From NCBI GenBank assembly GCA_018920185.1, contig JAHLMT010000001.1, positions 78,702-142,701 of the forward strand: a DNA stretch of 64,000 bases, in the 5' to 3' direction. The translations under genes and the position numbers were made by a program. Every line of letters begins with the position of its first letter. The stretch's first letter is position 1. Source of the DNA: Candidatus Aenigmatarchaeota archaeon. Lineage in GTDB: Archaea; Aenigmatarchaeota; Aenigmatarchaeia; CG10238-14; SCSR01. Below, in pieces: positions 1,582-50,668 of this stretch. The notes below the pieces were generated by a model that saw nothing but the letters and a program-made list of their open reading frames with translations, was not told the origin of the DNA and did no database searches.

Positions 1582-2613
1582 TTACCTTATCCAGACTACT
1601 AAATCAGCTCTTTCAACTGCACAAATGCAACAATGACTCATCGACGGACCACTTTCACAACTAGCGAACCATGTTGCAAACCCACAGGAATCTCCTCTAT
1701 CTCCATTAGACCAACCATTAACTGCACAAGAGCAACCTGTACTTTGAGAATATATGGGACTACCCCATGAACTTGTGTAAGCTGCATCTGAAAGTAATTT
1801 TATATCGGCATTAATATTGTTTTCAAAAGCACGTTTTTGAAAAAACTCTTTTCCTTCACTTCCGCATCCATTTGATGACCAATCATTCGGGTTGCTTATT
1901 TTATTAAAAATAACTGCAGTAACGGGATTATTCATATCATATCTGTTTTGTTGCCTCCAGTAAGCACGTGTAATTTTTTCACCATTATTCAAAATAGTCT
2001 TTATATTGGAATCTGATAACTTAACTGAAGTAGGTGAATTAGGATTAGTTACACTTCCCTTTGCTCCTACGTCCCAACAGTTATTAGCTTCTGACGCTTT
2101 ACATACAGCGGCTAATGTCCATCCCCCATCATTAGTAGACATATCACAATAGACTTGGACATCAACGCCGTCCAGTTTTAAGGTATAAACACCATCACCC
2201 ACAGAACCACCGTTATTCAGAATTTCCAAACAACTTTTACCAGTTCCAGGACCAGTAATAGTCAATATAGCTGTACTGCACATGCTTGATGTGCACAGGC
2301 GTAGAGTGTGAGTCCCAACGGATAACATTGAAGGTATTAATGGTATTATTTCAGCAACCTGTCCAGGTTGTATGGGTTGCATTTTTAAATTTACAGACTG
2401 CCCGTCTAAAGTTGCTGTAATTTTAGTTATTTCTGATGTCCCATCATTTCTTATAGTTACCTTACTTCCCGTTGAACCTATTACAGAAAATGGGGTAGCT
2501 AATCTTGAAGTAAATGTCCCAGAAATATAAAGGTAAGCTGTTCCTGCTAGAGCAATTGTAATCATCAGCATTAAAATAACACCAATAACAGTGGAAATTC
2601 CTTTGTTTTCCAT
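1582..2613 (-). CDS. type IV pilin-like protein (class III signal peptide) with C-terminal fibrinogen-related (FReD-like) Cys-rich domain
   Basis: The N-terminus MENKGISTVIGVILMLMITIALAGTAYLY is an archaeal prepilin (DUF361-type) signal. The C-terminal half contains GVYTLKLDGVDVQVYCDMSTNDGGWTL, matching the FReD hallmark (VYCDM.TDGGGWTV), followed by a Cys-rich tail. Confidence 0.7.
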   Translation of the reverse strand: MENKGISTVIGVILMLMITIALAGTAYLYISGTFTSRLATPFSVIGSTGSKVTIRNDGTSEITKITATLDGQSVNLKMQPIQPGQVAEIIPLIPSMLSVGTHTLRLCTSSMCSTAILTITGPGTGKSCLEILNNGGSVGDGVYTLKLDGVDVQVYCDMSTNDGGWTLAAVCKASEANNCWDVGAKGSVTNPNSPTSVKLSDSNIKTILNNGEKITRAYWRQQNRYDMNNPVTAVIFNKISNPNDWSSNGCGSEGKEFFQKRAFENNINADIKLLSDAAYTSSWGSPIYSQSTGCSCAVNGWSNGDRGDSCGFATWFASCESGPSMSHCCICAVERADLVVWIR

Positions 2614-4499: not shown

Positions 4500-4883
4500 G
4501 ATAAATTTTACGAAAAATTCTTCTCCTTCAAGCATGTGTATGGAACTAGTACTACATTATCAGATAAAATAAGCATCCCTACATGTTACTATCGAGAAGC
4601 AAAAGTTGAATCAAGAAACCCTTTTAGAGGCGATTGTTAGAATTGAACAATCAAACTAGTAACTACTGCATTTTAACAGTAAATAAACGAAATCCAAAAG
4701 GAAAACAGATTGTATATAGACTAAAATTGTGATGGCAAAGTAGATGTGTATGTGGGTGAACAACTAATTTCAAGAAACAACACGTTCGGAAACAATCAAG
4801 ATTCAATTTATAAAGCAAAGCTTAGAATACTTGGTGAACACTGAATCAAAAGCTTTTATTTCACGTTTTTCAAATAATATAAA

Positions 4884-5360
4884 GTGAGCATGCCCATCAG
4901 AGACGAGGAAGAATTTGAACTAGTTCCTTTATCGCCGATAAGAAGATTAGAAAAAAGAATTGAAAAGCTCGAAAATACTGCCGGTGGTGTTGATGTCAGA
5001 GAATTTTTCCGTGAACTCATTGCAATAATTAGAATGAATCAAGAAATTGTGGATGAGTTAGCTAAATCAAGCGATGCTCTACGAGTTGAACTTGCAAAAC
5101 TACCGGCAAAGATAGATGAAGTTATAAAAAATCTCAATGAGTTGATATCCTATATTAGAGCAGCAGCAACAGAAGAAGCTATGCAAATTCCCCCAACTGT
5201 ATTTCAACCATTAGCAGAAAAACTTGATCAATTGATAGCAGCTAATCAAAAAATAATAGAAAACAATGAAAACATCTCAGGTTTGTTAGAGTCGATAGAA
5301 AAGAAACTCAAGCCGCCATTACCACCAAAACCACCGATACTAAGACCTATACAGAGATAA
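4884..5360 (+). CDS. hypothetical coiled-coil protein with Pro-rich C-terminus (first gene of pilus locus?)
   Basis: A 158 aa, strongly heptad-like ORF ending KLKPPLPPKPPILRPIQR. The start may instead be the ATG at 4890. Confidence 0.5.
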   Translation: MSMPIRDEEEFELVPLSPIRRLEKRIEKLENTAGGVDVREFFRELIAIIRMNQEIVDELAKSSDALRVELAKLPAKIDEVIKNLNELISYIRAAATEEAMQIPPTVFQPLAEKLDQLIAANQKIIENNENISGLLESIEKKLKPPLPPKPPILRPIQR

Positions 5361-5413
5361 ACCACAGTTGATTAGTTATAAATCTAAAAAAACTAAATAA
5401 ATTAAAGGATTGT

Positions 5414-6061
5414 ATGAACTCAAAAGCTGTATCCACAGTTATTGCAGCTGCACTTATTGTTGCAATTGCTCTAGGTTTAACATCTACAGCTTATATCTGG
5501 GGAACCCCGTTGATAGAAAAAAGACAAGAAGCTTCAGTTACAGAAAGAGTTTACAACCAATTCTTACAAACTAACCAAAATTCACTACCAAAAATAATAG
5601 AAGATGTTGCAAATAACAGAGGTGTAAGAAGCTTTACAATTGGTACAAATGGTGCATGGGTATTAAACGCTAATGAAGACTCGATAGAATTTACCTTTAC
5701 AAGTAAGACATCCAATGTAGCAGCAAATATGCAGAATCCTATATCACTAACTCCAGGTGTTCAGTGTACAGGCCAACAGAATTCACCATCACCAGCAGTT
5801 GGCGTATTAGGTCAGGACAGCTCTTCGGTTGTCTGCGTGTCGGCTACTACAGTCGGTGATACTTTTGAAATTAAATACAAAATCTGGTTCCGTGAGTTAG
5901 TAGATAATCCATTTTCACCAACTCAAAAATTCAAAATTGATTTAGAAAAAGATCCAACAGGACTTGACAGATCTTCAAGTAAAACAATAAAAATAACTTT
6001 TGGTGAGAGCGTAACAAGCGGAACATTAATTACAAAGAAAATACTAATTCTACTTATATGA
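5414..6061 (+). CDS. archaeal type IV pilin-like protein (class III signal peptide)
   Basis: The N-terminus MNSKAVSTVIAAALIVAIALGLTSTAYIWG matches the K-A-V-S-T-V-I archaellin/pilin N-terminal domain. Its end overlaps the next ORF (ATGA). Confidence 0.75.
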   Translation: MNSKAVSTVIAAALIVAIALGLTSTAYIWGTPLIEKRQEASVTERVYNQFLQTNQNSLPKIIEDVANNRGVRSFTIGTNGAWVLNANEDSIEFTFTSKTSNVAANMQNPISLTPGVQCTGQQNSPSPAVGVLGQDSSSVVCVSATTVGDTFEIKYKIWFRELVDNPFSPTQKFKIDLEKDPTGLDRSSSKTIKITFGESVTSGTLITKKILILLI

Positions 6062-6477
6062 AAGCTGTCTCTCTAATAGTCCAATTCGTTATTTTCTTTA
6101 CTATAGGCTTGTCATTTTTCTTATTAATAGGTAATCTCTTCAAATTTCAATCAGATTTGATTAAGCGCGACATACTCGAATCTGGTTCAACACTTTCTTT
6201 AAATCAACTATCGGCTGCTTTAATCAACGCAGTAAACTCATGCAAATCGTGCAATAACGTATCTATAAAAATTGATCAGAAACCTATTGCTGAATACACT
6301 CAAATTTATCAACTATCTGATAATTTAATCCTTAAGATAGAACCAGAAAACAAAATAATCAAATCATCTTTGCATAACTTGAATTATTCAATAAATTCTG
6401 ACCCGACAGAATTTTCAGCATCTAAAACAATAACTTTAACATACGACAGAACCAACAATAAATTAGTGATCAAATGA
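6058..6477 (+). CDS. small pilin-like / FlaF-FlaG-like membrane-anchored protein
   Basis: MKAVSLIVQFVIFFTIGLSFFLLIGNL resembles a class III signal / N-terminal TM. The start is translationally coupled (4-nt overlap) to the flanking genes. Confidence 0.55.
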   Translation: MKAVSLIVQFVIFFTIGLSFFLLIGNLFKFQSDLIKRDILESGSTLSLNQLSAALINAVNSCKSCNNVSIKIDQKPIAEYTQIYQLSDNLILKIEPENKIIKSSLHNLNYSINSDPTEFSASKTITLTYDRTNNKLVIK

Positions 6478-8846
6478 ATCCAAGATTCTCTTTGTTCCAA
6501 AAATTAATCAAAGGCTATAGAATAGCAAAAGTAAGCGAATACATTGGAAAATCTGAGCCAGTCCTAGGACAACCAAAATACATTCCAAGTTTACCGAAGC
6601 CAACAACTGTAGGAGAAGTAGCTAGAGCTTTTAATCTGCCTACAACAATGGTAGAAAAACTCTATAATGAAATAAAACAAATCCAAAAACTATCAGAAGA
6701 GCCTGTCGGTGACCCCACAAGTCTAAAAAATAAAATTGAAGATGTGGAGAAAATTGCAGCAAATACAGGAGTGTACATCCTCCCGGAGGTATACAATGCT
6801 ATCAAGCAAGCCAAAGAAAAAGTTCGTGAACTAGAGTTAAACACAGTATCTGATATAGATCCTTTACTTGAAGCCAGAAAGCAGATAGAAGAACTAGAAA
6901 AAGAAAAGAGAATTTTAGAAGCTGCCAAAGCTGCAGCGATGGAAAAATATTATAATCGTGAAATTGACGAAGCTTCTCTTAAAAATATAATTGATAACTA
7001 TGAACAGAGACTTGTTGAAAATGATGTAAGAATTAAAAGCTGGAAAGAAGAGCTAGAAAAATTAGAAAAAGAACCCCAGCTTGCAAGAAAAACTCCAGAA
7101 GAAAAGAAAGAAAGATTTCTTGCAGTCATGCAAGCAGTCAAATCGGGTGAAACAAAAGCTTTTGCACAAATCTCAAAAATACCTCTACCTACATTGCAAC
7201 CTTTAGTAAACGTTCAAATTCCACAACCTTCGACTCCACCACAACTCTTTAAACCAATAAAAACTGTAGAAAGAATAGAAGGGCTTGAAATACCACGCGC
7301 TCCTAAAAAGGCAATAAAAATAAGTTCAATTGAAACCGAAGAAGAAACACCTCATATTTCTCTTACCTATCCTTTAATTCCTAGATTTCCATCAAAAGGC
7401 GACTATGTTTTTGCTTATGCAAAAATTTTCTGGGACGATACTAACAACAGATATGTTTACTATCTTGTTGAGCCAAAACTAACAGAAAAACTGAAAGAAA
7501 TTTATCAAAAAGTTAAGGAAATGCTAGAACAAAGACTTGACATAGATTTTTCTAAGCTGAAGAAAATCGAAGCAAAAGAATTTCTCGATAAACAAATCGA
7601 CGATATTTTGAACTACTTTAACTTCATTCTAACCAAAAAAGAAAAGGAAATTTTGAGATATTACATGTTCAGAGATTTCACAGGCTTAGAGATGATAGAA
7701 CCCTTAATTCAAGATCCCAATATCGAAGATATCAGTTGTGATGGTGTTGGAATCCCAATATTCGTTTTCCACAGAAATCCCGATATAGGGTCAATAGCAA
7801 CAAATATAAAATTCATTAACTCAGACCAACTAGATTCGTTTATAATAAAATTAGCACAAATGTGTGGAAAATCTATATCTATATCAGAACCTTTACTTGA
7901 CGGAACATTACCAGACGGTAGTAGAGTACAAGCAACTCTAGGAACCGATATTGCAAGAAGAGGTTCGAATTTTACAATCAGAAAATTTACAGAAATTCCT
8001 TTAACACCCGTACATTTCATGAACTATGGAACAGTGGACTCAAGCATTCTAGCATACTTATGGTTTGTTATCGACTACGGTAGAAGTGTTCTGATTTCTG
8101 GTGGTACGGCTTCAGGCAAGACTTCTATGTTAAATGTTCTTTCTCTCTTTATCAGACCTGAGAAAAAGATAGTATCAATTGAAGATACTGCCGAGTTAAG
8201 ATTACCACATTATCACTGGGTACCTGTAGTTGCAAGAACTGCTATTGGAACGGAAGGTAAAGGTGAAGTTGATATGTTTGAACTGTTAAGAGAAAGTTTA
8301 CGACAGAGACCCGATTATATTGTAGTAGGTGAAGTTAGGGGGAAAGAAGCATATATCTTATTTCAACAAATGAGTACAGGTCACCCTTCTCTCGCAACCA
8401 TTCACTCTGAAAATATGGCACGACTAGTCAACAGACTAACAACACCACCTATTTCATTACCTGCAGGATTGATCACAGCTTTAGATATAGTGATTTTTCT
8501 TGCACGTATGAAATATAAAAACAAATTTGTCAGAAAAGTCGTTGAAATTGACGAGATTGTTGATTTTGATCTAAACACAAACACACCAATCATCAATCAA
8601 ATCTTTAAATGGGATCCCAAAACTGATAAGTTTGAAATAACAGGTAAAAGCATCTCACTCAAGAAAGTATCGGATTTTACAGGAATTTCTGAAAAAGATA
8701 TCAAAGATGAAATCGAACGAAGAATTGTTGTACTAGAGTGGATGAAGGAGAATAACATAACAGATTATCGAGATGTTCATAGAATATTTTCTATTTATTA
8801 TAACGATCCAGCAAGCTTATTATCATATATACAAGGTGCTGGGTAG
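6474..8846 (+). CDS. FlaI/GspE/VirB11-family secretion ATPase (type IV pilus assembly ATPase) with about 290 aa N-terminal coiled-coil extension
   Basis: Walker A LISGGTASGKTSMLNVL, the Asp/His boxes, YIVVGEVRGKEAYILFQQMSTGHPSLATIHS, and a FlaI-like N-domain (YPLIP.FPSKGDYVFAYAKIF). The first roughly 290 aa are coiled-coil-rich with no FlaI counterpart. Confidence 0.85.
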   Translation: MNPRFSLFQKLIKGYRIAKVSEYIGKSEPVLGQPKYIPSLPKPTTVGEVARAFNLPTTMVEKLYNEIKQIQKLSEEPVGDPTSLKNKIEDVEKIAANTGVYILPEVYNAIKQAKEKVRELELNTVSDIDPLLEARKQIEELEKEKRILEAAKAAAMEKYYNREIDEASLKNIIDNYEQRLVENDVRIKSWKEELEKLEKEPQLARKTPEEKKERFLAVMQAVKSGETKAFAQISKIPLPTLQPLVNVQIPQPSTPPQLFKPIKTVERIEGLEIPRAPKKAIKISSIETEEETPHISLTYPLIPRFPSKGDYVFAYAKIFWDDTNNRYVYYLVEPKLTEKLKEIYQKVKEMLEQRLDIDFSKLKKIEAKEFLDKQIDDILNYFNFILTKKEKEILRYYMFRDFTGLEMIEPLIQDPNIEDISCDGVGIPIFVFHRNPDIGSIATNIKFINSDQLDSFIIKLAQMCGKSISISEPLLDGTLPDGSRVQATLGTDIARRGSNFTIRKFTEIPLTPVHFMNYGTVDSSILAYLWFVIDYGRSVLISGGTASGKTSMLNVLSLFIRPEKKIVSIEDTAELRLPHYHWVPVVARTAIGTEGKGEVDMFELLRESLRQRPDYIVVGEVRGKEAYILFQQMSTGHPSLATIHSENMARLVNRLTTPPISLPAGLITALDIVIFLARMKYKNKFVRKVVEIDEIVDFDLNTNTPIINQIFKWDPKTDKFEITGKSISLKKVSDFTGISEKDIKDEIERRIVVLEWMKENNITDYRDVHRIFSIYYNDPASLLSYIQGAG

Positions 8847-9715
8847 TGGGATTTTACACAAGAGTAGCATTCACACTTTTTGGCAGATTTAGTGATAATT
8901 TAATAGTTTTCTTTCCAGATTTGTCAGATAATTTGAAAAAAGCTGGAATGAAAATTTCTAGTAAAGAGTACATAAGTACAGGAATATTAACATCTTTTTT
9001 ATTTTTCCTCATTGAAATACCATTGCTATCTTTTATTTTTGGTATGTTTTTCCGAAGTGTGATATTAAGTGTAATAACAGCAATTACATTATCTGCACTG
9101 CTTACAATAATAATTTTTTATTTGTTTACAAAATATCCCAACACAGTTGTGGCAGATAGAGCAAAAAAGATAGACACTTATCTACCGTTTGCATCTTTAT
9201 TTCTCTCAACAATTGCTGGTACAAAATTACCTCTAGATCAAGTTTTTAAATTTTTTGTAAAAAATAGCAAATACGGAGAAGTAACCAATCAATTTCAAAT
9301 GATAACTAACGATGTGGAAGCTTTTGGGTTGGACGTTCATACAGCATTGCAAAGAGCTATAGATAGAACACCATCAAAAAAATTGAGAGAAATGTTATAC
9401 GGATTGTTATCTACATCACTCTCAGGCGGAGATGTTGCTATTTATTTGAGAGAAAAAGCTGCAAATCAAATGGAAGATTATAGGCTATCAATAACTCAAT
9501 TCTCTAAAAAATTGGTTTTATTTATCGAGATTTATCTCACAGCAATAGTTTTAGGTGCTATATTTTTTGTAATCCTTACATCGATATTTTCTGGAATTTC
9601 TGGAGTTTCCAGCAACATAATTTTATTACAGTCTCTGATTATTTTTATTTTCCTACCACTGCTGTCACTTCTTTTCATTCTTTTAGTTAAAATATCTTCG
9701 CCAATAGGAGAATGA
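8846..9715 (+). CDS. type II secretion system F-domain membrane protein (TadB/FlaJ N-half-like)
   Basis: A polytopic membrane protein with the T2SSF motif region LREMLYGLLSTSLSGGDVAIYLREKAANQMEDYR. It has a GTG start overlapping the ATPase stop. A downstream ATG (MKISSK) is an alternative start. Confidence 0.7.
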   Translation: MGFYTRVAFTLFGRFSDNLIVFFPDLSDNLKKAGMKISSKEYISTGILTSFLFFLIEIPLLSFIFGMFFRSVILSVITAITLSALLTIIIFYLFTKYPNTVVADRAKKIDTYLPFASLFLSTIAGTKLPLDQVFKFFVKNSKYGEVTNQFQMITNDVEAFGLDVHTALQRAIDRTPSKKLREMLYGLLSTSLSGGDVAIYLREKAANQMEDYRLSITQFSKKLVLFIEIYLTAIVLGAIFFVILTSIFSGISGVSSNIILLQSLIIFIFLPLLSLLFILLVKISSPIGE

Positions 9716-10641
9716 AGATGAAAAAACTAACAATACGACAAATTTCATTTATTACAATAGGAATATCTGCCGTGTTGATAATTACAGGTATAATAACTTC
9801 TGACGCAGGTATAATAGGTAATTCAATAATTCTTTCGACCTTTATAATAGCTGCACCAATTTTATACATCCGTTACAAACGGCTTAGAGAATTTAAAGAG
9901 ATGGAAGAGAAATTTCCGAACTTTCTACGTGATTTAGTGGAGTCGATAAGAGCGGGCCTTCCTCTTCACAAAGCTATAATTGCTGCAAGTAAGATAAACT
10001 ACGGGACTCTTTCAAAAGAAGTAAACAAGATGGCAAATCAACTATCATGGAGAATGCCTATAGATAAAGTGTTGAGTCAATTCGCCCACCGAGTAAAGAA
10101 CAGTAAAAGAATGGCTTCTGGAATACAGGTAATTCTGCAATCTTACCTATCTGGTGGAGATGTGATTTCTACAATTGATTCTGTTGCTGATTCTCAACTG
10201 ACATTAATCGAAGTTGAAAAAGAAAAATCTTCTGCACTCAGTCAATATGTTGTTGTCATGTATGCCATATCTTTAATCTTCATAGGTATAGTAGTAGCTG
10301 TAAACAAGCTAATGATACCTATATTTGGCTTATCGCAGCAGGGAACTGAATTTGGTTTATTAAATCCTTGTGACACCTGTGTTGGATTAGAATGCTCTGT
10401 ATGTTCGTTATTCGAAACGACATCTGGTAACATATTCGGATTAGATCCAAAAAGTATAGGAGCATATTATACAGCTTTATTTTTCTTTATGAGTATCACA
10501 CAATCAATATTTTCTGGTTTAGTTGCAGGTCAAATCAGTGAGGGTTCTGCAATAGCTGGTGCAAGACACAGCCTGATTTTAGCTAGCATAACTTTCGGAA
10601 TATTCAGTATTTTAGTGAGGTTAGGTTTGCTTGGCTCGTAA
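9712..10641 (+). CDS. type II secretion system F-domain membrane protein (TadC/FlaJ C-half-like)
   Basis: T2SSF domain FLRDLVESIRAGLPLHKAIIAASKINYGTLSKEVNKMANQLSWRMPIDKVLSQFAHRVKNSKRMASGIQVILQSYLSGGDV, multiple TM segments, and an ATGA overlap with the upstream gene. Confidence 0.75.
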   Translation: MKMKKLTIRQISFITIGISAVLIITGIITSDAGIIGNSIILSTFIIAAPILYIRYKRLREFKEMEEKFPNFLRDLVESIRAGLPLHKAIIAASKINYGTLSKEVNKMANQLSWRMPIDKVLSQFAHRVKNSKRMASGIQVILQSYLSGGDVISTIDSVADSQLTLIEVEKEKSSALSQYVVVMYAISLIFIGIVVAVNKLMIPIFGLSQQGTEFGLLNPCDTCVGLECSVCSLFETTSGNIFGLDPKSIGAYYTALFFFMSITQSIFSGLVAGQISEGSAIAGARHSLILASITFGIFSILVRLGLLGS

Positions 10642-11143
10642 AGCTCAACTTGCATTTGATTTTTACGTTTCTTTACTCGTCTTTATAGGAATTTTAGGTT
10701 ACTTAACATTTCAACTTTTTCAAATAATTCCAGCAAGTTCTGGTAATTTAAAAGAAGAATCTTTGCGAATAGAAGCTTATCAAATATCAGAATTGCTAAT
10801 CAATGATGGTGGACATCCTATTGATTGGCACACGGTAGGTGATATATCTAATATAAAAAGAATTGGTCTGTCTGACTCAAACAAAAATATAACCAACTTT
10901 TTACTAAGAGGAAAGATAGATCGCTTCAAAACAATATGCAATAACAATTTTAATAATATTAAAAATCTGTTGGATATTAAAGACGAAATAAATGTTACTA
11001 TAATAGAACATGGGCCAAATGTCGATGTGAGCAGTTGCGCATCCAATCAAGCTAAAAAAGTAAGTTTTAGTGTAAGTCGGACAGTTCTAATTAGTGGAAC
11101 TTCCTATCCAACTGAAATTATTGTAGAGGTGTGGAAAAAATGA
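10631..11143 (+). CDS. pilin-like / minor pilin candidate
   Basis: An N-terminal hydrophobic segment MARKAQLAFDFYVSLLVFIGILGYLTF follows a basic residue. The ORF overlaps both neighbours within the pilus operon. Confidence 0.5.
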   Translation: MARKAQLAFDFYVSLLVFIGILGYLTFQLFQIIPASSGNLKEESLRIEAYQISELLINDGGHPIDWHTVGDISNIKRIGLSDSNKNITNFLLRGKIDRFKTICNNNFNNIKNLLDIKDEINVTIIEHGPNVDVSSCASNQAKKVSFSVSRTVLISGTSYPTEIIVEVWKK

Positions 11144-12492
11144 AAGGTCAAATATCAATTCTTGAAGCTATTTTTTCAGCTATAATCCTCTTTATCGCAT
11201 TTAACATGATGATAACTGTTGAGGAGTATCAGACCAAATGGAAAGAATCCTTAAACTTACTCCAAGGAAGGGACGCACTAATTACTGCAGATAGGTTAGG
11301 TAGACTTCACGATTTTGTATTTTCTGACTCATTTGCAAGAGAGTTTCTCAATAAATTAGATGCATTAAAAGATGTTGTAATAAAGAATGAAACTCGAGGA
11401 ACTCTTAAAAATAGACTTTATGTTGCATGCAACTGTACGGATGATAAAAGAGATTATCTACAAAACATTCTTAATGATGTGAAATTTAACACAAGAAAAA
11501 TATCTGCTGTAGTCTGTTCTACCAATTTGTTAACAATAAACAATTGCGGGTCGAATGCAAAATATCCCGATGTACTGGTTATTTGGAGATATGATCCTTT
11601 GGAAGGTGCTGTAAGAAATGCTCTGATAGATTTTGTGAAAGATGGGAATGGTTTAATTGAAATAGCAGATGTACCCAATTCAAGAGTTGACGGGCAAGGG
11701 GACGATGACCATGAGGGGCAGAAAATAATTTTCGGAATAAAATCCATCCAAGGTAATTACCCCAACAATCCAATTGAATTCTTAAAACCTAGAAATTCTT
11801 CGGTGTTACCATACCAATCTTACAAATGGTTTTATCATGTACCTTATTTGTTGCAAGGTACTAGCTCTGAAACAATACCGGTGGAGGATGGAATTGCATC
11901 TTGTTCAACCGAAGGTATGAAAGGTAAAGGTAATTTCAGATTTCGAAATACAGACTACACATTTTGGATATGTGGTACGACTTCTGTATACTGGGATACA
12001 AATGGAAATAATAAGGCGGATAAAGTTGTGACCCCGAGAAATAAATTCTCAATAGGTAATTCTAACTTTTTCTTAAACTATATAGACAGTCCAAGAGAAA
12101 TAAGGATTTCCTTCAAACCGGATTATCTATTCAACAATTTCATTGGTGGGAATAATGTAAACAAACTAGCTCCGATCGACAACGATAAAAACAAGGTTCT
12201 GCTCTCGATGGGTTTCTGGGATCAACAAAGAGAAAAGCCAATAGCAGCAATAATATTCAATGGAACGGGAAATGGAATCACAGCTTGGGTAGCGGATTTC
12301 GCCAGAGATGGATTGACAAATACAGGTGATGATCACAAACAACTTCTAGCCTCATTAATCTTATCAATGGCAAACAAAAGAACTAAAGAAACATTCCAAC
12401 AAATTGGTCAAACAACTTCTTACATAAATGTAAATAACACAGACATCCTAGAAATATATAAAATATATTTGAGCATCGGTAAACCTTTCTAA
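11131..12492 (+). CDS. large pilin-like protein (possible pilus tip or adhesin subunit)
   Basis: The N-terminus MEKMKGQISILEAIFSAIILFIAF (KG|Q.. with Glu near +5/+6) is prepilin-like. It is followed by about 420 aa of Asn/Gly-rich extracellular domain with no recognisable enzyme motifs. Confidence 0.55.
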   Translation: MEKMKGQISILEAIFSAIILFIAFNMMITVEEYQTKWKESLNLLQGRDALITADRLGRLHDFVFSDSFAREFLNKLDALKDVVIKNETRGTLKNRLYVACNCTDDKRDYLQNILNDVKFNTRKISAVVCSTNLLTINNCGSNAKYPDVLVIWRYDPLEGAVRNALIDFVKDGNGLIEIADVPNSRVDGQGDDDHEGQKIIFGIKSIQGNYPNNPIEFLKPRNSSVLPYQSYKWFYHVPYLLQGTSSETIPVEDGIASCSTEGMKGKGNFRFRNTDYTFWICGTTSVYWDTNGNNKADKVVTPRNKFSIGNSNFFLNYIDSPREIRISFKPDYLFNNFIGGNNVNKLAPIDNDKNKVLLSMGFWDQQREKPIAAIIFNGTGNGITAWVADFARDGLTNTGDDHKQLLASLILSMANKRTKETFQQIGQTTSYINVNNTDILEIYKIYLSIGKPF

Positions 12493-12493
12493 A

Positions 12494-14362
12494 CTATCTT
12501 AATCGTAACGCCTCCAAATCTTTTGGCGCGTCTGTTGGTATTCTGAAAATTCTATTGATTGCTCTGGCTAATTCTTGTGTCTTCTGTGGTTCACCATGCA
12601 CACAAATTACTCTATCAGGTTTAGAACTCAGACGACCTACAAATCCTAATAATTGGTTACGATCAGAATGTCCAGATAATCCTTCAATAGTTTCTACCCG
12701 CATTTTTAATTCTATTGTTGTTACTTTCCCATTTTCTGTCGTTACAGGTATTTCTTTCCATCCTTTTTGAATTCTTCTTCCCATACTTCCCTCAGCTTGA
12801 TAACCAACAAATAGCAGAGTATTATTTGGATTTTCTGCCAGCTGGTGTAAATGTTGTATCACAGGTCCACCGGTTAGCATACCTGATGTAGATACAATAA
12901 CACATGGTTTGTCTTCCCACGCCTTTTCTCTTTCTTGTTGCGAAGCAATTCTTTTGAAAATAGAACTTAAGAAAGGATCATTACCTTGAAATATTTTCTT
13001 TTGCATGTTTCTGCTAAGATATTCCGGATATGCTGTGAATATTCCATTAGCATCCCATATCATACCGTCAAGATACACGGGATATTGGAATCCATGCTCG
13101 ACTAATATAGCCATAACTTCTTGTGCCCTCTCAACCGAAAAACTAGGAATTAGAACTATCCCATTTCTCTCCATAGTCCCATTAACAATATCGATTAAAT
13201 ATCTCTCCGTATCAGCTCTATTAGGCATAATATCTTGTACACCACCATATGTGGATTCTAAAATCAGTGTTTCCACTCTCTGAAAATCTGTAAAAGCAGG
13301 GTCCAATAAAGTTGTGCGTCCAAATTTTTGATCTAAGGCATAAACAATATTATGCATACCTTCACCAACATGAAGATGAATTAATGCACTCCCTAAAATA
13401 TGCCCAGCGTTCTGAAATGTTAGTCTCACATCAGGTGCAACATCCGAAACCTCCCCGTATTCCAAAGGTATAGCATGTTTAACAGCTTCTTTTATTCCAC
13501 GCACAGTATACAGAGGAGTTGTAGTACTTTTCTGCATAACATCAACATAATCAAACCACAGTAATGTCGCCAAATCTAAGGTAGGAGTTGTGATATAAAG
13601 TGGCCCATCATATCCATATTCATAAAGCATAGGCACAGCACCCACATGATCCAAATGTGCATGTGAAATAACAATTGCATCAAGTTCGTTGTAATCAAAC
13701 TCTTTTGTGTTAAATATGGGTAACAATTCAGAATTGGTTGCACCGGCCTTAACTCCACAATCAATTAGAACTTTTGACTTCGGTGTTTCCAATAATGCCG
13801 CACTTCTGCCAACTTCTCTCCAACCACCTAAACCGATTATTCTTACCCAATCTCTACTAGATTTTCTTTCACTAAATATCAGTTCACCAACTTTGTTCAA
13901 GAATTCTTTTCTAAACTTTACTTCTGCATGAATAACTTTTCGGATATTTTCGACTATATCCGATTTAATAGCAGGTACTCTTTCAATTCTCGGCATCCAT
14001 AAAGTTTCAGCTCTAATAGTTCGGAATGTTTCCCCACCTCGACCAATTACTAATCCAGGTTTCTGCGCGGCGATTATTACAATGCTTCTCTCAGGCTCAA
14101 AGTAAATTTCTTTTATCTTGGCATCTTCCGGAACTATTTGTTTTATTTTTTCTTTTGTTATTTCCTCATCAAGAACAAGATTTTTTTCTGGTCGAACTTC
14201 TATCCTCTTCTTTATCTGTGATACAACTTGCTTTACTGTATCTTCATGATTTATGAAAAAATCTCGATCTTTAGTGTAAACAATAATTTCACTACCTTCT
14301 AATTCAACTCTACTAACAACTTCTTTTGGTAGTAAGGACTTTACCTTTTCAAGAATCTCCAT
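12494..14362 (-). CDS. fttA: aCPSF1 / transcription termination factor FttA (KH + metallo-beta-lactamase + beta-CASP RNase)
   Basis: N-terminal KH region (VIGRGGETFRTIRAETL), the MBL motif ISHAHLDHVGAVP, and beta-CASP C-terminal motifs. The length of 622 aa is typical. Confidence 0.9.
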   Translation of the reverse strand: MEILEKVKSLLPKEVVSRVELEGSEIIVYTKDRDFFINHEDTVKQVVSQIKKRIEVRPEKNLVLDEEITKEKIKQIVPEDAKIKEIYFEPERSIVIIAAQKPGLVIGRGGETFRTIRAETLWMPRIERVPAIKSDIVENIRKVIHAEVKFRKEFLNKVGELIFSERKSSRDWVRIIGLGGWREVGRSAALLETPKSKVLIDCGVKAGATNSELLPIFNTKEFDYNELDAIVISHAHLDHVGAVPMLYEYGYDGPLYITTPTLDLATLLWFDYVDVMQKSTTTPLYTVRGIKEAVKHAIPLEYGEVSDVAPDVRLTFQNAGHILGSALIHLHVGEGMHNIVYALDQKFGRTTLLDPAFTDFQRVETLILESTYGGVQDIMPNRADTERYLIDIVNGTMERNGIVLIPSFSVERAQEVMAILVEHGFQYPVYLDGMIWDANGIFTAYPEYLSRNMQKKIFQGNDPFLSSIFKRIASQQEREKAWEDKPCVIVSTSGMLTGGPVIQHLHQLAENPNNTLLFVGYQAEGSMGRRIQKGWKEIPVTTENGKVTTIELKMRVETIEGLSGHSDRNQLLGFVGRLSSKPDRVICVHGEPQKTQELARAINRIFRIPTDAPKDLEALRLR

Positions 14363-23185: not shown

Positions 23186-23944
23186 ATGTCAATCAAACTG
23201 ATAACCGATTATCCTGTAGCATTTATTACTGATAAGAAAATTCTAGTTATTTCAGATACACATATAGGTATTGAATACACTCTCAACCAATCTGGCATTC
23301 GTATACACAAACAGATAGAAAAATTCAAAGATATACTCGATAAATTAATCGAGTTAACAAAAGCAAAGACTTTAGTAATCCTAGGTGACGTCAAACACAA
23401 AGTTCCTGGTGCTACAATTCAAGAGCTGAAAGATATACCCAAATTCTTAGAATACCTCTCAACAAAAGTAAAAGTTCTTATAACCAAGGGAAATCACGAT
23501 GATTTTTTAGAAAACATGATACCAACAGAAGTTAAGCTATATGGAAGCAGAGGTTTCAAAATTGGCAGATATGGTTTCTTTCACGGACATGCATGGCCTG
23601 GTAAAGCACTTACGAAATGCGATTATTTATTTATGGGTCATATCCAACCATCAATAGAATTCAAAGACAAGCTTGGCTACCAATCTTGGCAACAGGTATG
23701 GTTGAGAGGCAGACTAGATAAGAATGTGATTAAGAAAAGGTACAAAATAAATTCAACTGGTAAACTAAATATTATTATTCTACCATCTTTCAACTCCTTA
23801 CTTGGAAGTCTGAATGTAGTAGAAAAAGAAGATTTATCCGGTCCATTACTAACAAGCAATGCCATGAAGCTGGAAGAAATGAAAACTTATCTTCTGGACG
23901 GGACTTATCTTGGAATACTTAAATATATCCAAAAAGAAATTTAA
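23186..23944 (+). CDS. calcineurin-like metallophosphoesterase
   Basis: Motifs VISDTHIG, LGDVKH, GNHDD and FHGHAW. It sits where NurA is usually found but is not NurA-like. Confidence 0.75.
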   Translation: MSIKLITDYPVAFITDKKILVISDTHIGIEYTLNQSGIRIHKQIEKFKDILDKLIELTKAKTLVILGDVKHKVPGATIQELKDIPKFLEYLSTKVKVLITKGNHDDFLENMIPTEVKLYGSRGFKIGRYGFFHGHAWPGKALTKCDYLFMGHIQPSIEFKDKLGYQSWQQVWLRGRLDKNVIKKRYKINSTGKLNIIILPSFNSLLGSLNVVEKEDLSGPLLTSNAMKLEEMKTYLLDGTYLGILKYIQKEI

Positions 23945-23948
23945 TAAT

Positions 23949-25313
23949 ATGAAACCACTTCTGATATCTTTAGTAATGTTCTTAGCTTTAACTGGTGTAG
24001 CATTAGCACATGAAGTTGCTACAGCTTCTGCAGATCAGATAGGTAATGTTAGAGCAGGTGTTACACCTGATTCATTTCTTTACAGATTAGATGCAGCCAT
24101 TGATAACATTCGTTATTTATTGACATTTGACTCTGCGGCAAAAGCCAAAGTTGGCTTAGAGATTGCACGTGAAAGATTGTTAGAAGTCAAAGAAATGATC
24201 GCCAAAAATAAAATAGAGGCGGCACAAAAAGCTCAGAAAGAACACGCTAAAACTTTAGAAAAAGTTAAATCTTCTATTACAACTTTATCGAGAGACAATT
24301 CAACACGAGAACTCACAGAAACCCTTGAGCTAGAGAAAGAAATTGAAGAGCATGAAGAAGAAGTTAATACTATTAGTGGGGAGTTGAGAATAAAAATTGA
24401 AGTAAAAGGAAAAATTACTCCAGAGCAACAAGCATTAATAGATTCTTTTCTGAATCTGATGCAAAATAAAACAAGTGAAGCCAAAGTAAAAATTGAGAAC
24501 AAGAAAGACGAGGTTAAAGCCAAAATTAAAATTGAAACAGGAAAATCTGATGAAGAAATTGAAGATGATATTAAAAATTTAGAAAGAAAAACTGGTTTAC
24601 TAGACATTAAACAAACAAAAGCAAAAGAACAAATAGACGATTCACTAGAAGAAATAGCTAAAGTTCACTCGCTTTTATTACAAGTCAATGAAACCCAAAT
24701 AAATATCACAGCAGCAAAGATTTTGCTTTCTAGAGCTGAGGATCATTTATCACGTGCCCAAACAACTTTTAACGAAGCAAAATTCGGCGAAGCATTTGGA
24801 TTAGCAAACTCAGCTGAGAGGTTAGCTAAAAGTGCTGAAGAAATTCTAGAAAGATTGCTGAAAGTCAAAGAAGTCAAAAGAGAAATTGAAGTGGAAGTCG
24901 AAGGAGGTGTAGCAAAAATTAAAGTAGGGATAAACGATTTCAAATTAAGGTATAGATTAAATACAACAAACAAAGATGAAATTGTAAGTGACATCGCGGC
25001 TAAAACCGGGTTAAGTATAGAAGAAATTAATTCTGCTTTAGAATTTAAAGTGAAAGAAGCTGAAAAAGAAACCGAACTAGAAGCTGCGGTTGAAGAAGGT
25101 ATTGCTAAAATTAAAACTAAGATAGGTGGTATAGAAACCAAATTTGTAATACCAACCGAAAACAGATCTGAAATTATTTCTAAGATTGCCCAAAGAACTG
25201 GTCTAGAACAAGCAAAAGTAGAGGAAATACTTAAAATAGAAATCGAAAAATCTAAAAGCAGTAAATTAGGTATATCCAGCTCTGAAAAGTCTGGTGAATC
25301 GGAGAAAGATTAA
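23949..25313 (+). CDS. secreted Lys/Glu-rich alpha-helical protein with two internal repeats
   Basis: The signal peptide is MKPLLISLVMFLALTGVALA, with the start moved to this Met. The units GGVAKIKVGINDFKLRY...DEIVSDIAAKTGLSIEEI and EGIAKIKTKIGGIETKFVIP...SEIISKIAQRTGLEQAKVEEI are repeated. Confidence 0.6.
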   Translation: MKPLLISLVMFLALTGVALAHEVATASADQIGNVRAGVTPDSFLYRLDAAIDNIRYLLTFDSAAKAKVGLEIARERLLEVKEMIAKNKIEAAQKAQKEHAKTLEKVKSSITTLSRDNSTRELTETLELEKEIEEHEEEVNTISGELRIKIEVKGKITPEQQALIDSFLNLMQNKTSEAKVKIENKKDEVKAKIKIETGKSDEEIEDDIKNLERKTGLLDIKQTKAKEQIDDSLEEIAKVHSLLLQVNETQINITAAKILLSRAEDHLSRAQTTFNEAKFGEAFGLANSAERLAKSAEEILERLLKVKEVKREIEVEVEGGVAKIKVGINDFKLRYRLNTTNKDEIVSDIAAKTGLSIEEINSALEFKVKEAEKETELEAAVEEGIAKIKTKIGGIETKFVIPTENRSEIISKIAQRTGLEQAKVEEILKIEIEKSKSSKLGISSSEKSGESEKD

Positions 25314-31420: not shown

Positions 31421-31424
31421 TTAG

Positions 31425-31501
31425 TGCCCTCGATGGGATTCGAACCCACGACCTTCTCCTTAGGACGGAGCTGCTCTGATTCCAGGCTGAGCTACGAGGG
31501 C
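31425..31501 (-). tRNA. tRNA-Arg (anticodon CCU)
   Basis: The minus strand reads GCCCTCG-TA-GCTC-AGCCTGGAATCA-GAGC-A-GCTCC-GTCCTAA-GGAGA-AGGTC-GTGGG-TTCGAAT-CCCAT-CGAGGGC-A, a clean cloverleaf with no intron. Confidence 0.85.
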
Positions 31502-48915: not shown

Positions 48916-49467
48916 ATGCTAAGCAGAAACTTTTTAATTGAATTATTAGAAACAGGACAACTAAGAGTAGACGAAAATGGTCATTTAATCTTGTTTAATG
49001 AATTTGGAATTTTAACGCCCTCTGGAGTAGTTGTTAAACTTAGAGAATTGTTAGAAAGACAATTTGGGGAAAAAGTAGCAGACAAAATTCTTATGAAATT
49101 AGGAGAATATCAAGTAGAAGCTGCAGCAAAACGTTATATTAAAATACTGGGTATACATAGATTAGATAAAAATAAGATAATTCAATTCACAGAAAAAATT
49201 CTTAATGTTCTAGGATGGGGTAAAATTTTAGTTCAACCATTTCATGATAGTATAGTTACAGTTATTATGAAGGAAAGTGCATTAGGAATAAGATATAGAA
49301 AAATGTATAAAAAGAATAGTAAACGACCGATTGATTTTTGGGTTGCAGGCATGTTAAAAAAACACTTTTCAGTTATTTTTGAAACAGAGGTTAAAGTGAA
49401 AGAAACCAAATGTATGGCTATGGGGCATCCTTATTGTGAATTTTTGATAAAGAAGGTTAAACCTTAA
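48916..49467 (+). CDS. V4R-domain protein (predicted small-molecule/hydrocarbon-binding, COG1719-like)
   Basis: The C-terminal V4R signature KCMAMGHPYCEF, and 183 aa. Confidence 0.65.
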   Translation: MLSRNFLIELLETGQLRVDENGHLILFNEFGILTPSGVVVKLRELLERQFGEKVADKILMKLGEYQVEAAAKRYIKILGIHRLDKNKIIQFTEKILNVLGWGKILVQPFHDSIVTVIMKESALGIRYRKMYKKNSKRPIDFWVAGMLKKHFSVIFETEVKVKETKCMAMGHPYCEFLIKKVKP

Positions 49468-50170
49468 TTCCATATGCGGCTTTACCTAACTTCATACCTT
49501 GGTTAGTTATTTCAATAGGAAATATATCGGTTGAATGATTTGTTCTTCTCATTTTTCTTATAATCAAACTTCTTGGTGTACCACCTGCGGCATATTCAAG
49601 ATAATGCAAGATTATAACACCATCAGCTAAAAATTCTTCAAAACCAAATCTACTCAATGCTTTTGTTTCTGTTTCCGGTACTTCAGTTATTAACAAACTA
49701 GTTACATCAAGACTCTTCAAACTTTTCATAAATCCAAAGACTTCAGCTCTGATTTTAGTTAAATCCATTTCACCTACTTTCCATCCCATCGTGGCTATTG
49801 ACAAGCTATCAAGAACAAATCTTTTTGCATCTACTTTCTTCACATAGTTAATAGTTGCAGTTGTTAACTCTTTAATTCCAGTGGGTTCTAAAGGAACAAG
49901 TAAAAATTTACCAGCTTTCATGTATTTCTGGAATTCAGTATCCCACCCAAATCTGCTAACATCTTGTAAAATCTCATCCTCTTTCTGTTCTAGTGTAACA
50001 TATACACCATTCTCCCCTTTCCTTAATCCGTGCAAAAGATATTGCATACAAAACAATGTTTTTCCAGTACCAGTCTGTCCTGCAACTAGATTAACAGAAT
50101 TCTTAACAAAACCACCTTCAATTAATTTATCCAACCCAGGAATCCCACTTTCTACTCTTTCAACCGCCAT
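49457..50170 (-). CDS. KaiC-like / RecA-superfamily ATPase (single domain)
   Basis: GIPGLDKLIEGGF and Walker A LVAGQTGTGKTLFCMQYL. The length of 237 aa is like archaeal KaiC/FlaH-like proteins. Confidence 0.8.
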   Translation of the reverse strand: MAVERVESGIPGLDKLIEGGFVKNSVNLVAGQTGTGKTLFCMQYLLHGLRKGENGVYVTLEQKEDEILQDVSRFGWDTEFQKYMKAGKFLLVPLEPTGIKELTTATINYVKKVDAKRFVLDSLSIATMGWKVGEMDLTKIRAEVFGFMKSLKSLDVTSLLITEVPETETKALSRFGFEEFLADGVIILHYLEYAAGGTPRSLIIRKMRRTNHSTDIFPIEITNQGMKLGKAAYGIKV

Positions 50171-50191
50171 AATTATTATTAAGACTTTTAA

Positions 50192-50650
50192 CTATTTACG
50201 CTTCTTTTTTAATTTGGTTTCAATCTCAACCAATTCTTTAAATAAATCAGAATAGGCAGATTTCAGATCATCTTCACCAATTTCCTTTGCATAAAACTTT
50301 TTCTTGAACTCTTTAATCATCGATCTAATTTCTCGACGTCTTTTTGTAAGGATAGCAGTTTCCAGAGCTTTTGTGTAGAATAAATGTAAAATACTAGCTA
50401 AAATTAAAAGTGCTCCTAGAGAAAGTAAACCTAAAACAAAATGGGGCTCAACTTCTGCAACCAAAATTCGAATCAAGTAGGATATACCAATAAAATCTAA
50501 TCCCAAAGCCATTAGAAAGATGCTAAGTGAAATCCGCTTAAAAGCTTCTTGTGCGAAATAAAAAATCACATAAGGTGCTGTTATAAACACAAAAAAGTTG
50601 ATGAAGTTTACTAAATTCGATATTATAAGCTGAATTTCAGGATTGACCAT
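50192..50650 (-). CDS. small membrane protein, hypothetical
   Basis: A 152 aa ORF with 3-4 predicted TM helices and a charged C-terminal helix. Confidence 0.45.
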   Translation of the reverse strand: MVNPEIQLIISNLVNFINFFVFITAPYVIFYFAQEAFKRISLSIFLMALGLDFIGISYLIRILVAEVEPHFVLGLLSLGALLILASILHLFYTKALETAILTKRRREIRSMIKEFKKKFYAKEIGEDDLKSAYSDLFKELVEIETKLKKKRK

Positions 50651-50668
50651 AATTATTATTTGTTTTTA

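Follow-up and report, generated by a model that had tools for sequence, protein, structure and literature searches.

Is the cluster of eight genes at positions 4884–12492 of this Aenigmatarchaeota contig a pilus or an archaellum, and what is the long sequence that precedes the catalytic core of its motor ATPase? We analyzed the cluster in the context of the window, which is the whole 64-kb stretch of DNA presented here. The locus is an unremarkable type IV pilus (TFF) operon, well conserved, from a tiny DPANN archaeon. Its one unusual feature concerns the motor ATPase, which has taken up a helical domain that in related operons exists as a separate protein, encoded just 5' of the ATPase gene.

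All eight open reading frames lie on the + strand. ORF1 (4884–5360, 156–158 aa, probable start ATG 4890) precedes two genes for pilin-like proteins (5414–6061, 215 aa; 6058–6477, 139 aa), the pilus assembly ATPase (6474–8846, 790 aa, T2SSE), two platform proteins (8846–9715, 289 aa; 9712–10641, 307–309 aa, probable start 9718), a third pilin-like protein (10631–11143, 170 aa), and a modular pilin (11131–12492, 450–453 aa). From 5414 onward the consecutive genes overlap by 4, 4, 1, 4, 11, and 13 nt. Such overlaps occur at six of six junctions in the operon, whereas elsewhere in the window, which is compact (~94% coding), 9 of 28 junctions between genes on the same strand overlap. The first-pass annotation described this arrangement as a tightly coupled operon for two class III-signal pilins, two further pilin-like proteins, a FlaI/GspE ATPase, and two separate T2SS-F membrane proteins, and we could confirm both layout and gene content. 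Relatives carry the same operon at the same chromosomal site, and its neighbors are genes for thermosome, CPSF, proteasome, and ProRS. ORF1 was also correctly described as a coiled-coil protein with a proline-containing tail: the product is cytoplasmic and all-helical, with no predicted transmembrane (TM) segment and a conserved LPPxPP tail. It is found directly 5' of the pilin genes in every orthologous operon (51–80% identity in loci L003, L005, L006, L012, L013, and L022). Searches of Pfam and NCBIfam returned nothing beyond sub-threshold coiled-coil matches, comparison of its profile with PDB sequences matched designed helical bundles only, and similarity to the N-terminal extension of the ATPase was not found.

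The ATPase is a member of the VirB11/GspE/FlaI family of secretion ATPases (Pfam T2SSE PF00437, E 7e-35). Its nucleotide-binding motifs, namely Walker A (GGTASGKTS), Asp box, Walker B, and His box, are all intact, and their residues do not vary among the aligned sequences. The nearest solved structure is that of A. fulgidus GspE (2OAP, 401 bits, E 6e-119, aa 313–783; FlaI: 303 bits), which is a clade 2 pilus ATPase (AF0659; Makarova Fig. S4; PMC4858521). A match to PilB3_C is weak (E 0.011). Among the NCBIfam models the best match is FlaI (NF058587, 415.8 bits, E 2.6e-124). This ranking, the name "flagellar protein FlaI" assigned by JGI to many relatives, and the listing of FlaG/FlaI/FlaJ for Aenigmarchaeota MAGs (PMC8407114) are what one would expect from a reduced archaellum operon dedicated to motility, as metagenomic surveys of Aenigmarchaeota have annotated such homologues. 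We consider this reading very improbable, because the FlaI score remains below the equivalog cut-off of 550, AfGspE fits the ATPase better than FlaI does, the platform is split over two genes, and neither archaellins (archaellin-length FlaB) nor FlaC-H/X are encoded in or beside the operon. Furthermore, the window encodes a single KaiC-like ATPase, which lies 37 kb from the operon and is described far better by KaiC_arch models than by ArlH (32 bits, cut-off 215). A prepilin peptidase (PibD/FlaK/EppA, Peptidase_A24) was not found among the window ORFs with at least five predicted TM segments, which correspond to TadC, GPDPase_memb-like, TctA, and SpoIIM-like proteins. The gene for class III signal peptidase is often encoded away from the pilus locus (PMC4858521). 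These absences had been noted before, and they hold for the peptidase in the 64-kb window and for FlaC-H/X in the vicinity of the operon. Together with the ATPase scores, the missing archaellum genes support the earlier preference for an adhesion pilus, and the sequence data support assignment of the locus as a type IV pilus rather than an archaellum.

The split platform had been singled out as atypical for archaea. The 289-aa protein contains one T2SSF domain (PF00482, E 1.8e-13) and five hydrophobic segments, and aligns to positions 6–244 of 555 in the ArlJ model. The second protein, for which gene callers and orthologues use the start at 9718 (307 aa), also contains one such domain (E 1.7e-13) and aligns to ArlJ 196–442/465, BasF 371–562/656, and UpsF 264–423/484. 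The two adjacent genes correspond to the N-half and the C-half, respectively, of the FlaJ/ArlJ, UpsF, and BasF models. This division is well documented in archaea, so that the claim of atypicality has to be dropped: as a rule, system 1/Epd pili have a two-gene platform (EpdJ/EpdK), such platforms have been described for 4A/4B loci (PMC4858521, PMC4371748, bioRxiv 10.64898/2026.04.22.720090), and many clade 2 loci contain two tadC-like genes (PMC4858521).

Several characterized systems share features with the operon. Clade 2/system 2 pili (AfGspE AF0659, H. volcanii PilB3-PilC3 type) resemble it in the ATPase core, which by similarity score is closest to AfGspE among solved relatives, and in an ATPase N-terminus longer than that of FlaI. 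The window also codes for a stand-alone archaeal MinD, for PilA-like pilins, and for an additional large pilin, which matches the proposed ancestral plan of four components plus a FleN/MinD partner (PMC4858521). In contrast to this locus, system 2 has been described as having a single platform gene (bioRxiv 10.64898/2026.04.22.720090), even though many clade 2 loci have two tadC genes (PMC4858521); the large clade 2 pilin is of the all-beta arCOG02911 type, whereas the one examined here contains an alpha/beta ThuA-like domain; and a helical module in the ATPase has not been described for clade 2. The system 1/Epd pili of Methanococcus (EpdL, EpdJ, EpdK), for which occurrence in DPANN has been reported, resemble the locus in having two co-transcribed half-size platform genes, here located beside the ATPase gene, and, near the ATPase, genes for several minor pilins with class III signal peptides of the KGQ type. 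They differ by a dedicated EppA-type peptidase, which the locus lacks, and the ATPases of the system-1-like operons L014 and L016 share only ~32% identity with the core examined here. Bacterial Tad/Flp systems (TadA, TadB, TadC) follow the same plan of one ATPase and two single-T2SSF platform proteins, and CpaF is clearly homologous to the ATPase, though at a greater distance (E 1e-43). However, the ATPase scores only 168 bits against the TadA model (TIGR03819, cut-off 373), the locus encodes no TadZ, secretin, or Flp-type pilin, and its signal peptides as well as its ATPase core are of archaeal type.

Lineage-specific N-terminal additions are documented on archaeal TFF ATPases. The present ATPase begins with the motif MNPRFSLFQKLIKGYR (6474–6521, + strand, aa 1–16), a short predicted helix (aa 7–15, modeled by AF2 with low confidence). 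The consensus MKxxxSLxxKxIxGYK starts both the long (742–842 aa) and the short (565–643 aa) members of this ATPase family. It is followed by an inserted module of ~190 aa (6606–7175, + strand, aa ~45–234) and by a Pro-rich disordered linker (7176–7355, + strand, aa 235–294; pLDDT <50 across aa 234–303). The linker with its conserved G-x-E-I-P motif is common to the short-form relatives, and G270 and P274 are invariant or near-invariant in both forms. The module is all helical (pLDDT 82–93 across aa 80–200) and consists of an HTH-like helix pair and subsequent long helices, with the hairpin KYYNREIDEASLKNIIDNYEQRL contained in a CdvA-like three-helix part (aa ~130–233, nt 6861–7172). Of the ~295–313 aa that precede the FlaI-like core, only the ~190-aa module represents an insertion that is both folded and lineage-specific. 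It is missing from the short-form ATPases encoded by orthologous operons. Pfam and structure searches revealed neither sequence nor fold similarity of the N-terminus to GspE N1E, MshEN, or PilB-PilZ type domains.

The module does have homologues elsewhere. A search of 1.8 billion proteins identified five stand-alone, cytoplasmic proteins (P0122–P0126, E 3e-29 to 4e-9), in which the module forms the core and is accompanied by a CBS pair or a Zn ribbon plus a winged helix-turn-helix (wHTH) domain. In five of five cases the corresponding gene is located immediately upstream of the gene for a canonical ~510-aa pilus ATPase and terminates at, or within ~35 nt of, its start codon, with an overlap of 4 nt in some cases. 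The two platform genes are also present wherever the contig reaches far enough. These loci are paralogous, system-1-like pilus operons, one of them in a related Aenigmatarchaeota genome. The initial description of a ~290-aa extension with no counterpart was therefore right in that the extension is genuine and part of the same ORF, and wrong about its length and its lack of relatives.

The juxtaposition of the two genes in the paralogous operons raises the concern that the N-terminal 290–315 aa actually belong to a different gene located upstream, joined wrongly through a frameshift or an assembly error, since in principle a one-base error could fuse two genes with a 4-nt overlap. We regard such an artifact as next to impossible. 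Two independent Logan assemblies and the NCBI MAG GCA_038996915.1 contain one and the same 790-aa ORF, and at least 16 orthologues of 742–842 aa carry the region in one uninterrupted ORF (59–68% identity). The fused protein also lacks the C-terminal wHTH/CBS portion of the stand-alone proteins, and its core shares only ~32% identity with ATPases encoded next to stand-alone module proteins (L014, L016). Finally, since the first 16 residues form the N-terminal motif typical of this ATPase family, the module is located inside the ATPase gene and not ahead of it. The helical module was inserted within the flexible N-terminal linker of the ATPase in one sublineage.

Because the module is separate and adjacent to the ATPase gene in paralogous operons, we read it as a dedicated, ATPase-associated accessory or regulatory subunit that would here be covalently tethered to the motor. 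Judged from gene order and homology, it is best read as a Rosetta-stone fusion between the pilus ATPase and an accessory subunit not described before. In the stand-alone forms the terminal wHTH domain, which is absent from the fused form, probably mediates docking. The N-terminal domains in the GspE N1E-GspL, MshEN, and PilB-PilZ-FimX systems are extra domains of an assembly ATPase that provide the contact surface for a regulatory or accessory protein, and may serve as a working model for the fused module by functional analogy only.

The C-terminal half of the module weakly resembles the coiled-coil domain of CdvA (PF18822; S. islandicus CdvA, PDB 9S9G). The module itself matches no Pfam family, PF18822 included (gathering threshold 30 bits), and three of its relatives match PF18822 below this threshold (best: 23.4 bits, E 6.3e-5), so that every sequence signal stays under curated thresholds. 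Unlike CdvA, which works in cell division, the module occurs in the context of a pilus motor and lacks the PRC barrel and the E3B peptide. The three-helix coiled coil probably serves for oligomerization or for contact with other proteins that contain the same hairpin. 

The four pilin-like proteins of the operon start with a class III signal peptide, consisting of a short basic leader, [GA] at position -1, and a hydrophobic helix. None of them reaches a curated pilin model in Pfam or NCBIfam, and orthologues retain all four N-termini. The 215-aa protein carries a PilA-type signal (MNSKA|VSTVIAAALIV...; K[GA]|[IV]STV in orthologues), a single N-terminal TM segment, and a weak match to UpsA (E 0.075). 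The 139-aa protein, encoded with an ATGA overlap at both ends, begins with MKA|VSLIVQFVIFF..., and its orthologues share [KR][AS]|[VI]SL followed by a hydrophobic helix. The 170-aa protein (MARKA|QLAFDFYVSLL; KG|QLSxDFYVAL in orthologues, family pattern KG|QLSxDFY) matches DUF7287 weakly (E 0.047). It has a 170-aa counterpart in the Archaeoglobales-labelled locus L023 and is replaced by a 491-aa DUF2341 protein in L022, a more distant relative. For the last gene (MEKMKG|QISILEAI; pattern KG|QISxxEA) the upstream start at 11131 is backed by orthologues that begin with MEKVKGQ or MAKVKGQ. Its product combines the signal peptide with a ThuA/GATase1/GIFT-like alpha/beta domain and a beta-sandwich, and is globular, modular, and uniform in length among orthologues. 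With 9.6% Asn and 6.9% Gly in a genome of 33% GC it is not notably Asn/Gly-rich, in contrast to what the first-pass annotation had stated for its ectodomain. Elsewhere in the window, two further pilins reach arch_flag_Nterm, a pilin with a fibrinogen-like lectin domain is encoded at 1582–2613, and a stand-alone gene at 51984–52379 codes for a PilA-like pilin of 131 aa.

By analogy to other TFF machines, the four class III signal-peptide proteins would be processed by a prepilin peptidase encoded elsewhere. The hexameric GspE/FlaI-type ATPase would dock on a heterodimeric platform of half-size FlaJ/TadC proteins and drive insertion of pilins into a surface filament. The shaft may be built from PilA-like pilins, with the 215-aa operon protein and the 131-aa protein as candidates, and the 139-, 170-, and 450-aa proteins are most likely minor or initiator pilins. 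The 450-aa protein, which the first-pass annotation had suggested as a possible tip subunit and which may occupy a tip or initiator position, may display its ThuA/GATase1-like domain as a globular head. Such a filament would likely serve for adhesion rather than swimming, with a host cell or a surface as the probable target.

A functional filament could also serve mainly for DNA uptake, or as a short, bindosome-like pseudopilus that displays the 450-aa protein for capture of substrates or glycans. Natural transformation in Methanococcus requires Epd-type pili (PMC10133366), and SPIII-bearing binding proteins have been proposed to functionalize TFF machines for scavenging (bioRxiv 10.64898/2026.04.22.720090). 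The conserved, enzyme-like or sugar-handling-like fold of the 450-aa protein (ThuA, GIFT/OST48) and its uniform length, unlike that of a fast-evolving adhesin, are consistent with such a role, as is the requirement of DPANN archaea for external nucleotides and nutrients. On the other hand, neither competence-specific genes nor genes for binding proteins or ABC transporters adjoin the operon, the BasE model (209.7 bits, cut-off 1000) and the BasF model (14.8 and 26.8 bits, cut-off 1300) fit poorly, and the lectin-domain pilin and PilA-like pilins in the window suit adhesion. A main role other than adhesion is unlikely, if still worth considering. We favor the explanation that the locus is a conserved pilus operon with a split platform and a fused accessory module, used for adhesion rather than swimming, and assign it a probability of roughly 0.7 as a whole.

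A more speculative extension, which we think is rather doubtful, is that the module represents a previously unrecognized family of cytoplasmic motor accessory subunits of archaeal type IV pili, that its CdvA-related coiled coil self-associates, and that its hairpin, shared with small membrane proteins (for example that encoded at 50192–50650, beside a KaiC-like ATPase) and with the cytoplasmic tails of Ig-domain surface proteins that span the membrane once, joins surface proteins and pilus machines in a single positioned assembly. If true, the stand-alone module proteins would put this linked assembly under nucleotide sensing by CBS domains, and the module family would be a cytoskeleton-like organizer of the host-contact apparatus of DPANN archaea.

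The eight plus-strand ORFs of the pilus operon lie at 4884–12492, exactly where the first-pass annotation had placed them, and all junctions from position 5414 on overlap as it had claimed (by 4, 4, 1, 4, 11, and 13 nt). Outside the operon, 9 of 28 same-strand junctions in the window overlap when the longest ORFs are used. Since all six operon junctions overlap, the tight coupling is genuine, even if overlaps are frequent in such a compact genome (the window has 33% GC and is about 94% coding). To follow the operon across relatives we assembled synteny from exact-protein look-ups; a contig scan with the ATPase had yielded just seven loci. The eight genes keep their order between a thermosome gene and convergent CPSF–proteasome–ProRS genes in five loci from related MAGs and metagenome contigs (L003, L005, L006, L012, and L013). 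A more distant relative (L022) carries the same operon at the same site and in the same order, with a 491-aa DUF2341 protein in place of the 170-aa gene (10631–11143). An Archaeoglobales-labelled contig (L023) contains the ATPase, two platform genes, a 170-aa gene, and a 465-aa gene. The shared order and chromosomal site identify a conserved chromosomal pilus operon rather than a one-off. The last operon protein (11131–12492) is 100% identical to QW818_00220 from another Aenigmatarchaeota MAG (NCBI; GCA_038996915.1, contig JAWAFN010000001.1), where the flanking gene calls also agree. Some relatives contain intein/LAGLIDADG insertions, namely in the pilus ATPase orthologue P0013 (1339 aa) and in a CPSF/beta-CASP protein (1153 aa; L012, 16161–19622); the window copies of both genes are intein-free. 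Between the thermosome gene and ORF1 the window has a 385-nt stretch with no long ORF (4500–4883), at the place of which L003 (7854–8231) and L004 have a 125-aa protein.

The 790-aa ATPase (6474–8846) contains a T2SSE domain (E = 7e-35); of the curated models FlaI fits the protein best, far ahead of BasE and TadA. The closest solved structure is Archaeoglobus fulgidus GspE (2OAP; E = 6e-119 over query residues 313–783), with weaker matches to Sulfolobus acidocaldarius FlaI (E ~4e-89) and CpaF (E = 1e-43). Makarova et al. treat this GspE (AF0659) as a typical pilus ATPase of clade 2, one of the published groupings of archaeal type IV filament (TFF) loci (PMC4858521, Fig. S4). The proposal that the operon encodes a pilus and not an archaellum is therefore supported, because the FlaI score of 415.8 bits stays under the 550-bit equivalog cut-off and AfGspE is closer than FlaI. 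The reported absence of a prepilin peptidase also holds, as no Peptidase_A24 occurs among the polytopic ORFs of the window. As to individual candidates, a 263-aa protein with six TM segments (51176–51967) is SpoIIM-like instead of a prepilin peptidase, and a KaiC-like ATPase (49457–50170) considered as FlaH/ArlH fits KaiC_arch_3 far better (167 bits versus 32 bits for ArlH).

The two platform genes (8846–9715 and 9712–10641) encode proteins of 289 and 307/309 aa with one T2SSF domain apiece, the first matching the N-half and the second the C-half of the full-length models of FlaJ/ArlJ, UpsF, and BasF. The contrast drawn earlier with FlaJ and UpsF is correct, but this arrangement is already known in archaea and is not atypical (PMC4371748; PMC4858521; bioRxiv 10.64898/2026.04.22.720090). 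The Epd pili of Methanococcus maripaludis require two co-regulated pilC paralogues, EpdJ and EpdK (PMC4371748), and two TadC components are described for clade 1, many clade 2 loci, and clade 4B (Makarova et al., PMC4858521). Sivabalasarma and Albers (2026 preprint, bioRxiv 10.64898/2026.04.22.720090) list two platform genes as the hallmark of system 1, DPANN included, and as present in some DPANN 4A loci. We also find two platform genes in Thermoplasmatota relatives. Existing literature thus largely deflates the claims of atypicality.

At the N-terminus of the ATPase, alignment of long (742–842 aa) and short (565–643 aa) relatives shows that both forms begin with the family-wide motif MKxxxSLxxKxIxGYK. 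Only the long forms continue with an insertion of ~190 aa (residues ~45–234 in the window protein), C-terminal of which follow a Pro-rich linker, in which a GxEIP motif is conserved, and a FlaI-like N-domain starting at SLTYPLIPR (residue ~295). AlphaFold2 models residues ~45–233 as confident helices (pLDDT 82–93 over residues 80–200) with disordered flanks; a Foldseek comparison of the N-terminal model with the PDB returned nothing with E below 0.5. The possibility that a frameshift had joined a separate ORF to the ATPase can be dismissed, since an identical 790-aa ORF is found in three independent assemblies. Furthermore, the short-form ATPase P0021 (599 aa) sits in an orthologous eight-gene operon, which argues that the module is an insertion within an orthologous gene and not a mis-joined ORF. 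The extension is accordingly one genuine part of the protein, conserved among the long-form relatives. A rough neighbor-joining tree of the ATPase core groups the long forms together, but the group also takes in a few short forms and leaves out one long form. This topology points to a module that may have been gained and then occasionally lost, or gained repeatedly.

With the module alone as query, a word-indexed homology search recovered one partial self-match and no relatives. An exhaustive phmmer search with residues 40–240 against 1.84 billion representatives detected, besides ATPase orthologues, five stand-alone module proteins (P0122–P0126, E = 2.6e-29 to 4.2e-9). In P0122 and P0123 the module lies between a basic N-terminus and a CBS pair, and a wHTH-like domain forms the C-terminus. 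In P0124, P0125, and P0126 a Pro-rich linker joins the module to a wHTH-like domain, and P0124 and P0125 additionally have an N-terminal Zn-ribbon motif (CPKCG). All five genes directly precede a T2SSE ATPase gene, four of them with a 4-nt overlap. Four contigs extend beyond the ATPase gene; there the ATPase has 508–510 aa, and two T2SSF genes and a ~145-aa pilin-like gene come next. The fifth contig (L018) stops inside the ATPase gene. These system-1-like ATPases have no extension and share ~32% identity with the window core. Upstream of the module protein, L014, L016, and L019 have about five small genes, which in L014 and L016 begin with K(G/S)Q-type leaders.

L014 comes from a related Aenigmatarchaeota genome (Mre11 73% and HerA 70% identical to the window). 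In that genome a complete system-1-like operon (5357–14304) separates Rad50 from HerA; besides the genes for the stand-alone module protein, the ATPase, and two platform proteins, it has five small pilin-like genes, one KaiC-like gene, and a further pilin-like gene. In the window the stop codons of Rad50 and HerA abut at 21650/21651, which identifies this second operon as a presence/absence polymorphism.

The extension was initially described as lacking a counterpart in canonical FlaI, PilB, or TadA. It does have counterparts, namely five stand-alone homologues, each encoded next to a pilus ATPase gene. Judged from sequence and gene neighborhood, the module probably belongs to a dedicated partner of pilus ATPases that has become covalently fused in the window lineage, a classic Rosetta-stone pattern. 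All stand-alone forms share the wHTH and the fused form lacks it; a role of the wHTH as a docking element would fit this absence. We found no description of this protein family: Pfam contains no model for it, and Makarova et al. 2016 (PMC4858521) do not mention CBS or wHTH partners. TFF ATPases are known to bear subsystem-specific N-terminal domains as possible contacts for accessory proteins (bioRxiv 10.64898/2026.04.22.720090).

The C-terminal half of the module follows the consensus LExxKxxLxxAKxxxxxKYYxREIDExxFxxxMxxYExxLxE. This half also recurs in large Ig-domain surface proteins and in small membrane proteins, where it follows a TM helix and forms the cytoplasmic tail. In the window, a 152-aa protein with three TM segments (50192–50650, minus strand) contains a diverged KYYxREIDE-type hairpin in its cytoplasmic tail (KKFYAKEIGEDDLKSAYSDLFKELVE). 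Its gene belongs to a three-gene cluster (49457–51142, minus strand) with the KaiC-like ATPase and a 157-aa protein with one TM segment; KaiC-like genes also occur within or adjoining other Aenigmatarchaeota pilus operons (L008, L014). Three independent, weak signals liken the module to the coiled-coil domain of CdvA. Pfam PF18822 gives sub-threshold matches in 3 of 19 relatives (best E = 6.3e-5), and a profile search of all PDB sequences produced a CdvA match with E = 0.04 in which the Y-x-x-x-E-I-x-E motif is aligned. We found no literature joining CdvA-like proteins to pili. A SHOCT-like similarity of the hairpin received no support from Pfam.

Four operon proteins begin with class III signal peptides (MNSKA↓VSTV, MKA↓VSLIVQF, MARKA↓QLAFDFY, and MEKMKG↓QISILEA), and their orthologues keep these motifs (K[GA]↓[IV]STV, [KR][AS]↓[VI]SL, KG↓QLSxDFY, and KG↓QISxxEA). 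None of the four reaches a curated pilin model, so that the pilin call rests on N-terminal motifs and context. The family of the 450-aa protein (11131–12492) contains 86 sequences, and all source-named members are from Aenigmat-/Aenigmarchaeota. Nearly all are 424–494 aa long, share 31–74% identity with the window protein, and contain no Pfam domain; two ectodomain cysteines, C97 and C99, are invariant. Although its ectodomain had been called Asn/Gly-rich, the protein is ordinary in composition, and modular pilin is the most apt description. GspK and PilY1-associated complexes provide examples of large minor pilins; by this analogy a position at the filament tip or as initiator is plausible. 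The product of ORF1 (4884–5360) is a helical protein of 156–158 aa with no TM segment and a conserved LPPxPP tail. No relatives of known function are detectable: Pfam and NCBIfam yield sub-threshold coiled-coil noise alone, and a profile search against PDB sequences returned designed bundles only. A paralogous relationship to the ATPase module was considered and rejected (BLASTP E = 0.24 or worse).

Other genes in the window may contribute to pili or to the cell surface. On the opposite strand, 2.3 kb upstream of the operon, lies a gene for a 343-aa pilin (1582–2613, minus strand; arch_flag_Nterm 41 bits) fused to a lectin-like head, a fibrinogen-like GGGWT domain (YCDxxxxGGGW; NF040941, 56 bits; Pfam Fibrinogen_C, E = 4e-5); relatives carry other genes in this slot. 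A stand-alone 131-aa PilA/UpsA-like pilin (51984–52379, minus strand; MKG↓ISTIIATILILL) scores over the arch_flag_Nterm cut-off and is a candidate major pilin of the operon machinery. An archaeal MinD (56750–57508, plus strand) matches TIGR01969 with 234 bits, over the 201.75 cut-off. It is the stand-alone FleN/MinD-type ATPase that Makarova et al. expected beside clade 1 and clade 2 pili; roles as partners or regulators of archaeal pili have been suggested for ATPases of the MinD and KaiC families (PMC4858521). Near the MinD gene, Rfam identifies a 123-nt tRNA (56591–56713, plus strand; 45.7 bits), probably an archaeal one with an intron, that is absent from the ARAGORN calls; a normal tRNA-Arg (CCT) is found at 31424–31501 (minus strand). 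Hydrophobic segments close to either end of a 778-aa protein (27820–30156, minus strand; weak pullulanase X25-like match) are likely to be an N-terminal signal and a C-terminal anchor. Together with a secreted 467-aa DUF5667 protein (23910–25313, plus strand), this protein is a candidate for the cell-surface repertoire.

For DPANN archaea, which live attached to host cells, type IV pili are a prime candidate for the means of attachment. To our knowledge, DPANN pilus machines are known from annotation only. Surveys of Aenigmarchaeota MAGs list FlaG/FlaI/FlaJ as archaellum proteins (PMC8407114); at this locus at least, such listings correspond to a conserved eight-gene pilus operon. The well-modelled modular pilin with its ThuA/GIFT-like head may form the filament end that contacts the host or binds ligands. 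These observations do not overturn current understanding but add detail to the idea that archaeal TFF ATPases diversify through N-terminal additions. Their main interest is narrow: a fusion to the ATPase exposes an undescribed accessory-protein module of archaeal pilus motors. The fusion points to a concrete, hitherto undescribed partner family with three architectures, one fused and two stand-alone (wHTH with a CBS pair or with a Zn ribbon), which provides a testable handle on the regulation or positioning of these motors.
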